A stretch of 4,463 nucleotides of DNA from a virus (Duplodnaviria; Heunggongvirae; Uroviricota; Caudoviricetes): the IMG/VR virus record IMGVR_UViG_2695420579_000010. One strand, 5' to 3'. Numbering within the stretch: position 1 is the stretch's first letter; each line of letters begins with the position of its first letter. Under the pieces are notes generated by a model. It saw only the letters and a list, made by a program, of their open reading frames with translations. It ran no database searches and was not told the origin of the DNA. A program made the position numbers and the translations under genes. Shown one piece after another: positions 2,138 to 4,463 of the stretch.

Positions 2138-2158
2138 TGCCGGAATAGAATCAAAAAT

Positions 2159-2321
2159 ACTTAAGTAGCGCGCAGGGAGAAGAGGGATGGACCCCGAACA
2201 GGGGAGTGCTATTTATCTGGAAGGATTCTGTTGATGAAAATCGAAGAATTACGTGAAATTTTTAGTGAAGATGGCCTCTATACTGTGCGCGTTGAGAATG
2301 GCGCTATTGTCAGCCACTGCC
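2159..2321. repeat. Direct repeat copy B
   Basis: Roughly 95 percent identical to 1354-1516. Starts 22 nt after the N gap and carries the same ACTTAAGT palindrome (2159-2166). Confidence 0.9.
2187..2234 (+). CDS. Possible 15-codon leader ORF upstream of X2
   Basis: ATG 2187; encodes MDPEQGSAIYLEGFC; stop TGA 2232-2234 overlaps the X2 ATG at 2234 (TGATG). Speculative. Confidence 0.25.
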   Translation: MDPEQGSAIYLEGFC

Positions 2322-2515
2322 TTCCAGACTACACAATTCTGATAATTCAGCCGTCTTTGCCAGCAGGCACGGGCGGCGCTCTCACGCATTTAAATCTGAT
2401 TGGTACCAGCATCCCCCATGCACTGAAGAACAGGCCGAATGGCTCATTCAGTGTTACCGCAGGCGCGGATGCGAGGTTAAAAAAGCCCTTAGCCTCGACT
2501 ACCGTCACTGGATAA
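2234..2515 (+). CDS. Hypothetical small protein X2 (shared N-terminus; C-terminal frame uncertain)
   Basis: ATG 2234 with GGAAGGA 8 nt upstream; 93 aa to TAA 2513-2515. After codon 29 the product is low-complexity (P/S/T/G/A-rich), and the -1 frame is also open through to 2589, so the true C-terminus may differ. Confidence 0.4.
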   Translation: MKIEELREIFSEDGLYTVRVENGAIVSHCLPDYTILIIQPSLPAGTGGALTHLNLIGTSIPHALKNRPNGSFSVTAGADARLKKPLASTTVTG

Positions 2516-2590
2516 TCTCCGTCAGGCTCCCTTACTCCGAACGGCCAACGCGTCCGTCCCGCACATTCCAGCAACGGATCTGGAGGTAAT

Positions 2591-3649
2591 GTGCGGGTAT
2601 TACTTCGACCTGTTCTGGTACCGGAACTCGGTCTGGTTATCGTTAAGCCAGGCCGTGAATCAATGTCAGCATTCCATAACGGCAGAATACTGGTGGAGCC
2701 GGAACCAAAAAGCATGCGTAATCTGCCGTCCGGGGTCGTTCCTGCCGCTCGCCAGCCGCTGGTGGAAGACAAAACATTGCTGCCGTTTTTCAGTAACGCA
2801 CGGGTGATTCGTGCTGCTGGTGGTGCTGGTGCATTGTCTGACTGGCTGTTGCGCCATATTAAATCCTGCCAGTGGCCACACGGCGATTATCATCACAGCG
2901 AAACCGTCATTCACCGTTATGGTACCGGCGCAATGGTGTTGTGCTGGCACTGCGACAACCAGCTGCGTGACCAGACATCCGAATCACTCGAGCAACTTGC
3001 TCATCAAAACCTGTCAGCATGGATGATTGACGTCATCGGTCACGCAATAAGCGGTACGCAGGAGCGTGAATTATCTCTGGCTGAATTATCCTGGTGGGCG
3101 GTCCGCAATCAGGTGGCGGACGCGCTACCGGAAGCGGTATTACGTCGTTCGCTGGGGTTGCGTGCGGAAAAAATTCGCTCTGTGTACAGTGAAAGCGACA
3201 TCATACCGGGAGAGCAGACAGCCACCAGCATACTGAAGCAGCGCACAAAAAATATTGCGTTACTGCCTCACGTCCACCAGCAACAGAACCCACCACAGGA
3301 AAAGACGGTGGTCAGCATTGCCGTTGATCCGGAGTCACCGGCTCAGTATCTCCAGCGCCAGAAATCACAACGGGAAGAGATGCCTGTATACACGCGCTGG
3401 GTAAAAACGCAGAAATGCATGACGTGTGGCAATCAGGCAGATGATCCGCATCACATCATTGGTCATGGACTGGGAGGGATGGGAACAAAGGCTGATGATT
3501 TGTTTGTTATTCCGTTATGCCGTAAATGCCGTAACGAACTACATGCCGGAGTAAAAGATTTTGAAGAGAAACACGGCAGTCAGCTGTTGTTGCTGATTCG
3601 TTTTTTAATGCACGCGAGAAATTCGGGTGTTCTGAAGTGGAAAGCATAA
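2591..3649 (+). CDS. DUF968 / YdfU-like prophage protein with Cys/His-rich modules
   Basis: 352-aa ORF from GTG 2591 with GGAGG (2582-2586) 4 nt upstream; alternative ATG at 2663. The translation resembles Qin prophage YdfU as I recall it. Contains CWHC and a C-terminal CMTCGN..HHIIGHG..CRKCRNELH motif. Stop TAA 3647-3649 abuts the rusA ATG. Confidence 0.8.
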   Translation: MRVLLRPVLVPELGLVIVKPGRESMSAFHNGRILVEPEPKSMRNLPSGVVPAARQPLVEDKTLLPFFSNARVIRAAGGAGALSDWLLRHIKSCQWPHGDYHHSETVIHRYGTGAMVLCWHCDNQLRDQTSESLEQLAHQNLSAWMIDVIGHAISGTQERELSLAELSWWAVRNQVADALPEAVLRRSLGLRAEKIRSVYSESDIIPGEQTATSILKQRTKNIALLPHVHQQQNPPQEKTVVSIAVDPESPAQYLQRQKSQREEMPVYTRWVKTQKCMTCGNQADDPHHIIGHGLGGMGTKADDLFVIPLCRKCRNELHAGVKDFEEKHGSQLLLLIRFLMHARNSGVLKWKA

Positions 3650-4030
3650 ATGACCGAGCGCATAGAATTTGTTTTACCTTACCCGCCGACGGTGAACACT
3701 TACTGGCGTCGTCGTGGCAGCACATATTTTGTATCAAAAGCCGGGGAGCGTTATCGCCGGGCAGTGGCGCTTATTGTTCGCCAGCAGCGGCTGAAATTAA
3801 GCCTGTCCGGAAGGTTGGCAATAAAAATTATTGCAGAACCACCGGATAAGCGCCGCCGTGACCTGGACAATATTCTGAAAGCGCCGCTGGATGCGCTGAC
3901 GCATGCGGGGTTGCTAATGGACGATGAGCAGTTTGATGAAATCAATATCGTTCGTGGTCAGCCAGTATCTGGTGGACGTCTGGGGGTGAAGATTTACCCC
4001 ATAATGCATGAAGAGCAGGTCAAAAAATGA
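3650..4030 (+). CDS. rusA: Crossover junction endodeoxyribonuclease RusA (Holliday junction resolvase)
   Basis: 126 aa with RusA hallmarks: N-terminal LPYPPTVNTYW, the acidic catalytic region RRRDLDNILKA..DAL..AGLLMDDEQ. Its stop overlaps the Q start (ATGA at 4027-4030). Confidence 0.9.
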   Translation: MTERIEFVLPYPPTVNTYWRRRGSTYFVSKAGERYRRAVALIVRQQRLKLSLSGRLAIKIIAEPPDKRRRDLDNILKAPLDALTHAGLLMDDEQFDEINIVRGQPVSGGRLGVKIYPIMHEEQVKK

Positions 4031-4463
4031 AACTGGAAGATTTACCGAAATACTACTCCCCAAAATCCCCCGGCCTGACTGATGCATCGGCCTCAACGTC
4101 GAAAGATGCGCTGAGTATCACTGATGTGATGGCCGCGCAGGGCATGACACAGAATCGGGCTGAGATGGGGGTTTCTGCGTTCCTTGGGAAAATGGGCATT
4201 AGTATGAATGACAGAGAGCGGGCAACAGAATTGCTGACAGAATATGCACTCAGTCGGTGTGATCGCGTGGCGGCGTTAAGAAAACTCCCGGCAGAAATAA
4301 AACCGGCAGTGATGCGTATTATGGCTTCGTATGCGTTTGAAGATTATGCCCGTAGCGCGGCGAGCAAAAAACAGTGCCCCTGCTGTCACGGAAAAAAATT
4401 TATTGAAAGCGAGGTTTTTACAAACAAGATCCAGTATCCGGATGGTAAGCCGCCGGTATGGGC
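4027..4463 (+). CDS. Antitermination protein Q (partial; 3' end beyond the window)
   Basis: Open frame from ATG 4027 to the window end, not in the ORF track because it has no stop. Translation starts MKLEDLPKYYSPKSPGLTDASAS and reaches a CPCCHGKKF zinc-finger-like motif. Sits in the canonical position after rusA in lambdoid late-regulatory regions. Confidence 0.8.
   Translation, partial: MKLEDLPKYYSPKSPGLTDASASTSKDALSITDVMAAQGMTQNRAEMGVSAFLGKMGISMNDRERATELLTEYALSRCDRVAALRKLPAEIKPAVMRIMASYAFEDYARSAASKKQCPCCHGKKFIESEVFTNKIQYPDGKPPVW

Follow-up and report, generated by a model that had tools for sequence, protein, structure and literature searches.

What is the function of the DUF968 protein encoded immediately upstream of rusA in IMG/VR virus record IMGVR_UViG_2695420579_000010, and does its position reflect a partnership with the Holliday-junction resolvase RusA? 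The stretch examined here, hereafter called the window, comprises 4463 bases; its gene content was determined with a listing of open reading frames (ORFs) and with Pfam. Here the early-right (nin) operon of an Escherichia prophage, lambdoid and Qin/Rac-like, reaches its distal end: a remnant of rem is followed by a YdfU-type DUF968 gene, rusA, and the gene for the antiterminator Q. Thousands of E. coli genomes, along with several induced E. coli phages, carry lambdoid prophage DNA of this type that is ~90–93% identical to the window. The original prediction, made from the sequence alone, had named DUF968, RusA, and Q, and Pfam confirms all three genes, with Q incomplete in the window. We favor, with moderate confidence, a reading in which DUF968 proteins act as metal-dependent nickases on recombination or replication intermediates in the nin operon together with RusA, and in which the copy in the window is impaired.

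The finding is real but ordinary, in that a well-populated and classified family occupies its usual place and the description "HNH-like, next to RusA" has already been published. New here are a lesion in the window copy that replaces His314 with Arg (H314R), a predicted second zinc site that explains the CWHC motif, a C-terminal domain that is equivalent to YbcO and shares its place beside RusA, and the counts that relate DUF968 to RusA and NinG. RusA and Rap are well studied, and the HNH proteins found beside RusA (YbcO and YdfU) occur in thousands of genomes. Recombination genes of the nin region shape phage mosaicism and prophage-driven change in E. coli genomes, including Shiga-toxin phages.

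The DUF968 protein comprises a predicted zinc module and an HNH domain joined by a flexible linker

The DUF968 gene occupies positions 2591–3649 of the plus strand, begins with GTG, and encodes 352 amino acids, a call that draws on Pfam, PHROG, an AlphaFold2 model, and the ratio of nonsynonymous to synonymous substitution rates (dN/dS). The protein matches Pfam DUF968 (PF06147) across residues 160–344 with an E-value of 2.6e-62 and 210.3 bits (cutoff 27.8), and Pfam HNHc_6 (PF16784) with 1.9e-6 and 28.0 bits (cutoff 26.6) over only profile positions 113–184 of 204. PHROG 96, which is already named "HNH endonuclease", matches it from end to end (1e-162). Relatives ~90% identical are encoded in thousands of E. 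coli genomes. The initial protein search returned only relatives at least 89% identical, and diversity was supplied by a search of representatives; conservation was assessed in 119 non-redundant full-length relatives, which combine 80 species from a genome collection with representatives at 50% identity.

The AlphaFold2 model, built from 30 diverse homologues, has a mean predicted local distance difference test (pLDDT) score of 86. It comprises an N-terminal module with a predicted Cys/His zinc site (residues 1–190; positions 2591–3160), a flexible linker (residues 191–260; positions 3161–3370; pLDDT 48–77), and a C-terminal HNH, or His-Me finger, domain (residues 261–352; positions 3371–3646). 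Selection on these segments is uneven. Against relatives, dN/dS is 0.11–0.19 for the whole gene, falls to 0.02–0.10 in the HNH domain, its most constrained part, and reaches its highest values (0.2–0.34) in the linker. The linker ends in a conserved motif, VDPE..(F/Y)(M/L)xR(P/Q)K (residues 244–258), in which D246, P257, and K258 are almost invariant in the family; the window protein has Q257.

Neither the whole protein nor its N-terminal half nor the family profile had a significant match among PDB chain sequences, and the C-terminal domain alone retrieved only YbcO, at an E-value of 0.8. Fold comparison and hhalign were needed. The C-terminal domain has the beta-beta-alpha-metal (HNH) fold, and among solved structures its nearest neighbor in fold comparison is P1 Ref, a RecA-dependent nuclease. 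An hhalign comparison of YbcO with the C-terminal alignment gave a probability of 91.5% and an E-value of 8.6e-7 over 81 columns; because of this match, the last ~90 residues are, as judged by profile alignment, a full homologue of YbcO/DUF1364. The nuclease-like fold that had been proposed for the C terminus is thus borne out by HNHc_6, the AlphaFold2 model, and the alignment to YbcO, and we conclude that this module is a zinc-stabilized HNH (His-Me finger) domain.

All four motifs quoted in the original prediction are present in the protein, but they differ in what they represent. CMTCGN corresponds to C276 and C279, HHIIGHG to H287-H288 and H292, and CRKCRNELH to C310, C313-R314, and H318. 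The predicted zinc ligands C276, C279, C310, and C313 are all retained in the window protein, and 105 of the 119 relatives have Cys, Cys, Cys, and Cys or His at these positions. Conservation of the C-terminal Cys/His set therefore holds up: the active-site residues H287, H288, D303, H314, and H318 (HHDHH) are intact in 109 of the 119. CRKCRNELH, by contrast, carries Arg where the family has His, and CWHC is no conserved CxxC.

The active-site set of the window copy reads HHDRH, which occurs in no other member of the set. His is found at position 314 in 110 of the 119 relatives, and the window protein is the sole one with Arg, which is specified by CGT at 3530–3532. All 118 close E. coli clusters with a readable motif have CRKCHNELH, and none has Arg314, which identifies CRKCRNELH, from sequence comparison, as a mutated CRKCHNELH. 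A read error is not the cause of this change, since a protein identical to that of the window, Arg314 included, is encoded by two IMG/VR contigs. Position 314 aligns with H185 of Gp16 from Staphylococcus phage phiNM1. We take it to be the third residue of the H-N-H signature, and hence a metal ligand, as in established HNH enzymes. Since H314R falls on a predicted metal ligand in an otherwise constrained domain, the DUF968 copy of the window is probably weakened or dead as a catalyst. As a natural active-site variant, it offers a ready-made control.

CWHC lies in the N-terminal module, as C118-W-H-C121, where the family consensus is C-W-H-[C/H]-D-N. A four-ligand site is predicted from C93, position 101 (His in the window), C118, and C121. 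Among the 119 relatives, C93 and C118 are essentially invariant, and only Cys and His occur at positions 101 and 121: the pair is H/C in 81, C/H in 21, and H/H in 15, and never C/C. Because ligands swap between positions 101 and 121, the sequences argue well for a second structural zinc site in this module. Modeled alone (residues 1–195), the module reaches a pLDDT of 92.5 and contains a beta-hairpin followed by a helix at 105–125 that bears C118 and C121.

The ancestry of this predicted zinc-binding module is uncertain; it is possibly a degenerate second His-Me finger. Its likeness to the HNH fold is weak and the scores are low. Foldseek found no matches for the N-terminal model, hhalign detected no similarity between this module and the C-terminal domain, and no conserved His stands at the place in the module equivalent to the catalytic one. 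The model did not match NinB (1PC6), and the module is distinct from the NinB/Orf-like domain of Gram-positive DUF968/HNHc_6 proteins (PMC4118853).

Five proteins (P0146, P0174, P0176, P0160, and P0127) contain the N-terminal 150–300 residues of YdfU in frame with tail-tip, tail-fibre, capsid, or portal domains. Most probably these are chimeras left by deletions in decaying prophages, not genuine architectures. Together with fusions that join the C-terminal module to truncated methylases, the N-terminal fusions to tail-fibre, capsid, and portal domains were rejected as clues to architecture, all being probable prophage-deletion chimeras or assembly artefacts.

Gene junctions and neighbors of DUF968

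Downstream of DUF968, the window carries rusA on the plus strand (3650–4030), which encodes an apparently intact resolvase of 126 amino acids. Its product matches Pfam RusA (PF05866; 2.1e-16, 61.1 bits, cutoff 22.8) and PHROG 34 (3.5e-57), and the equivalents of the catalytic residues D70, D72, K76, and D91 (K-12 numbering) are invariant in an alignment with K-12 RusA. The Q gene follows on the same strand (4027–4463) and is cut by the window end, so that only its first 145 of ~273 codons are present; the full gene measures 822 nucleotides in the E. coli relatives L001 and L002. The truncated product matches Pfam Antiterm (PF03589; 6.6e-23, 81.1 bits, cutoff 26.7) and PHROG 25523 (4.4e-100).

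The original prediction rested its claim of a tight unit on abutting codons, and these codons lie exactly where it had placed them: TAA at 3647–3649 abuts ATG at 3650–3652, and rusA and Q overlap by ATGA at 4027–4030. The 0-nucleotide gap between DUF968 and RusA is kept in 53 of the 71 E. coli-clade viral contigs in which RusA lies downstream, and an ATGA overlap between RusA and the next gene in 48. At the other end of DUF968, on the same strand, a Shine-Dalgarno sequence GGAGG (2582–2586), the TAA of the upstream rem-like frame (2587–2589), and the GTG start codon (2591–2593) crowd together, the GGAGG overlapping the stop of that frame. This GGAGGTAAxGTG junction recurs in L001 and L002, and a RefSeq coding sequence of 1059 nucleotides starts there.

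The step from packing to a specific unit did not survive a wider comparison. In a survey of 80 species-diverse DUF968 loci, the upstream gene overlaps the DUF968 start by ATGA in 46, whatever that gene encodes, and similar overlaps are seen with antirepressors, methylases, or RusA upstream. Because ATGA overlaps occur with unrelated neighbors, we reject them as a sign of specific partnership; stop–start overlap appears from these sequences to be a property of a densely packed operon, compatible with translational coupling and no evidence for a specific partner. No promoter or terminator inside the block of three genes stood out convincingly from chance.

In the same 80 loci, the constant neighbor of DUF968 is Q, which lies directly downstream in ~77 species. 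The Q genes (loci L003–L082) belong to unrelated families (Phage_antitermQ 42, DUF1133 18, Phage_antiter_Q 13, and Antiterm 12) and start 10–21 nucleotides after DUF968 in different species. There seems to be a mosaic recombination boundary right after the DUF968 stop codon, because four unrelated Q families follow it in different species. The genes upstream of DUF968 include antirepressor-like genes (ANT/Rha 26, KilA-N 8), RusA (19), and DNA methylases (~12), and rem-like genes precede DUF968 in Escherichia loci. The placement of DUF968 immediately upstream of RusA, correct for the window, proved to be limited to Escherichia and Shigella: it is found in 3 of the 80 species (E. coli, Shigella, and E. 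albertii).

Enrichment of DUF968 near rusA, which the original prediction had put forward as a check, was observed when order was disregarded. In 55 of the 80 species (69%), DUF968 has a RusA-like ORF no more than 4 kb away on its own strand, usually upstream. In none of the 80 loci did we detect NinG/Rap (with lambda NinG as the seed of an iterative search), a separate YbcO, or NinB. Among contigs with at least 3 kb upstream of Q, which are mutually related, 47 had both DUF968 and RusA, 6 had DUF968 only, none had RusA only, and 6 had neither (Fisher p 2e-5). From the side of RusA, a YbcO-like gene abuts a K-12-type RusA upstream in 52 of 67 contigs (78%), and NinG was present in one. The DLP12 order is ybcN-ninE-ybcO-rusA-ylcG-quuD, with overlapping genes. 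In the window, the long form, DUF968, occupies the exact place of YbcO. The group 7 HNH gene (the His-Me finger group that unites DUF968 and YbcO; see below) and rusA tend to travel together and to exclude NinG, with variable order and a pairing that is not obligatory.

Comparison with known nucleases and the proposed function

Jablonska et al. 2017 (PMC5714182) joined DUF968 (YdfU) and DUF1364 (YbcO, 3g27) as group 7 of the His-Me finger superfamily, named RusA, Q, and antirepressors as its neighbors, and proposed a role in recombination like that of NinG and the RecA-dependent nucleases. According to Curtis et al. 2014 (PMC4118853), DUF968 proteins carry a zinc-finger HNH motif and also occur fused to Erf, Rad52, or RusA. 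The closest known counterpart of the window protein is YdfU of the K-12 prophage Qin (PF06147, group 7), which shares its family, its length, and its position upstream of Q. Qin differs in lacking rusA between ydfU and Q, and H314R appears only on the window side of the comparison. In K-12, a very strong Rho-dependent terminator precedes ydfU; according to PMC9160355, terminators of this kind are essential for the suppression of toxic prophage genes. YbcO (DLP12/phage 82; DUF1364; PDB 3g27) has 96 amino acids and is without the 260-residue N-terminal module and linker of the DUF968 protein. For P1 Ref (PDB 3plw), a published functional analogue (PMC3973344, PMC4330346), the likeness is structural only; the N-terminal part of Ref is a disordered basic tail, whereas the window protein has a folded zinc module, and the Pfam family RecA_dep_nuc (PF16786) did not match the window protein.

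A relative has been characterized experimentally. Gp16 of phiNM1 is a RecA-interacting, RecA-stimulated nickase that is needed for efficient phage replication; it is also toxic, nicks host DNA, and blocks host replication (PMC12817073, 2026). Its HNH core is 37% identical to the window protein (E 2e-7), including the CxxC, the His, and the CxxH-H...H elements, and Gp16 matches both HNHc_6 (4.9e-117) and DUF968 above cutoff. The two proteins differ at the N terminus, which is NinB/Orf-like in Gp16 and not in the window protein, which accordingly lacks the Orf–HNH architecture of HNHc_6. The description of DUF968 as uncharacterized was therefore too sweeping, since the HNH assignment and the RusA/Q neighborhood are published and Gp16 has been studied; it stands for YdfU itself, on which our literature search found no experiment. 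In phiNM1 (L163), Gp16 is encoded at 3052–3723 and RusA at 6706–7113, ~3 kb downstream in a common early region. Because this Staphylococcus phage has both, co-residence of HNH and RusA genes extends beyond enterobacterial phages. Lambda NinG/Rap resembles DUF968 in being a His-Me finger protein of the nin region encoded just upstream of Q, and is a branch-specific recombination endonuclease (group 24 in PMC5714182). It differs in belonging to another Pfam family (PF05766) and in showing no sequence match to the window protein, and lambda is without RusA.

The nickase role that we favor is suggested by this analogy with Ref, Gp16, and Rap together with co-location with RusA. The DUF968 protein would fill the slot of NinG/Rap or YbcO in other lambdoid phages and, as a metal-dependent DNA nickase, would act in lytic growth on intermediates of recombination or replication. 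RusA, encoded alongside, would then resolve Holliday junctions. The N-terminal module may serve in recognition of a substrate or partner. The stop-to-start packing would follow that of the whole operon and would allow translational coupling. In the window, the nuclease would be weakened or dead through the change of His314 to Arg, beside a RusA that looks intact.

Several observations weigh against this reading. RusA is missing within 4 kb at 25 of the 80 loci, order and adjacency vary, and in K-12 Qin the order is hokD-rem-ydfU-Q with no rusA. RusA co-location may merely reflect shared residence in the nin region. The co-occurrence counts are uncorrected for phage relatedness, the Q seed was taken from Qs already beside DUF968, and the six DUF968-negative contigs may be interrelated. 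No experiment on YdfU or YbcO as such turned up in the literature search. As to the impairment of the window copy, H314R need not abolish activity, because H185A in Gp16 relieved toxicity only partly.

A more specific version of the same idea holds that the group 7 proteins, long YdfU and short YbcO alike, serve RusA as dedicated partners in lambdoid phages: the nickase, directed by RecA or to D-loops, would create or prepare the branched intermediates for RusA to resolve, the pair would replace the single enzyme Rap/NinG, and in the long form a degenerate second HNH-like zinc module would have been recruited to recognize the junction or a partner. We regard this version as rather doubtful. 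Somewhat easier to credit, yet still distinctly less probable than the reading we favor, is that the genes are independent modules, with DUF968 encoding a toxic nuclease for host takeover that has no tie to RusA and whose adjacency is a by-product of mosaic packing upstream of Q. The toxicity of Gp16, which works with RecA (PMC12817073), fits such a role, and so do the constancy of Q, in four unrelated Pfam families, rather than RusA as neighbor, the mostly antirepressor-like or methylase genes upstream, and the indifference of the ATGA overlaps to the partner. RusA is nevertheless within 4 kb in 69% of species, none of the six Q-anchored contigs without DUF968 has it, the short homologue YbcO abuts RusA in 78% of contigs, and NinG never stands alongside, suggesting a recombination slot.

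The family, or at least the H314R copy, could be a non-catalytic DNA-binding or regulatory protein whose zinc modules bind DNA or a partner, for example an accessory of the late-gene switch. His314 is indeed replaced in the window, ~10 of the 119 relatives have lost several active-site residues and are still full length, the place right upstream of Q is invariant, and the group 7 member of Arsenophonus nasoniae has been described as a phage transcriptional regulator (PMC5714182). We consider this improbable: a full HHDHH in 109 of the 119 and the lowest dN/dS in the HNH domain form the pattern expected of an enzyme, and a specific Q partnership is unlikely because the four Q families are unrelated. 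As is generally known, phage HNH genes often encode selfish homing endonucleases or terminase-associated proteins that aid cos cleavage (for review, see the introduction of PMC12817073). An origin of either kind is disfavored here as highly improbable, given that the DUF968 gene keeps its place upstream of Q across the 80 species and is under purifying selection, and that in phage L002 the terminase genes lie ~6.5 kb downstream beside a separate gene annotated "homing endonuclease".

The remainder of the window

The rem-like frame upstream of DUF968 (2296–2589, plus strand) was recognized by translation and by alignment to L001 and L002, whose rem-like genes are intact. Its own start codon is missing: the frame stays open as far as a TAA overlapping the ribosome-binding site of DUF968, and its 5' end is replaced by a repeated MKIEEL.. 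segment in another frame. This remnant is probably a recombination scar or a pseudogene. The segment belongs to a 163-nucleotide direct repeat, 94% identical between its copies at 1354–1516 and 2159–2321, that flanks a run of 76 Ns (2062–2137). The repeat holds the start of an ORF beginning MKIEELREIFSE.., which consequently occurs twice, at 1429–1716 and 2234–2515; neither copy has a Pfam match.

The N run, a scaffold gap, interrupts a NinB-like DUF1367 gene (1755–2061). To the right of the gap (2138–4463), the window is 99.8% identical to the IMG/VR loci L083 and L084, the two contigs that share Arg314, whereas 831–1516 is only ~85% identical. The two halves of the window may come from different prophages joined by scaffolding.

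A reading of the region as anti-phage defence was set aside, since PADLOC returned no match for the DUF968 protein, RusA, or QueH. The left part of the window carries a complete hok/sok type I toxin–antitoxin locus (854–1179), with sok at 854–1029 (Rfam RF01794, 117 bits) and a HokD-like toxin at 1024–1179 (Pfam HOK_GEF, 4.3e-23). Farther left, a gene for the epoxyqueuosine reductase QueH (110–796; Pfam 1.9e-65), a tRNA modification enzyme, constitutes prophage cargo in the early region, as in the E. coli relative L001.

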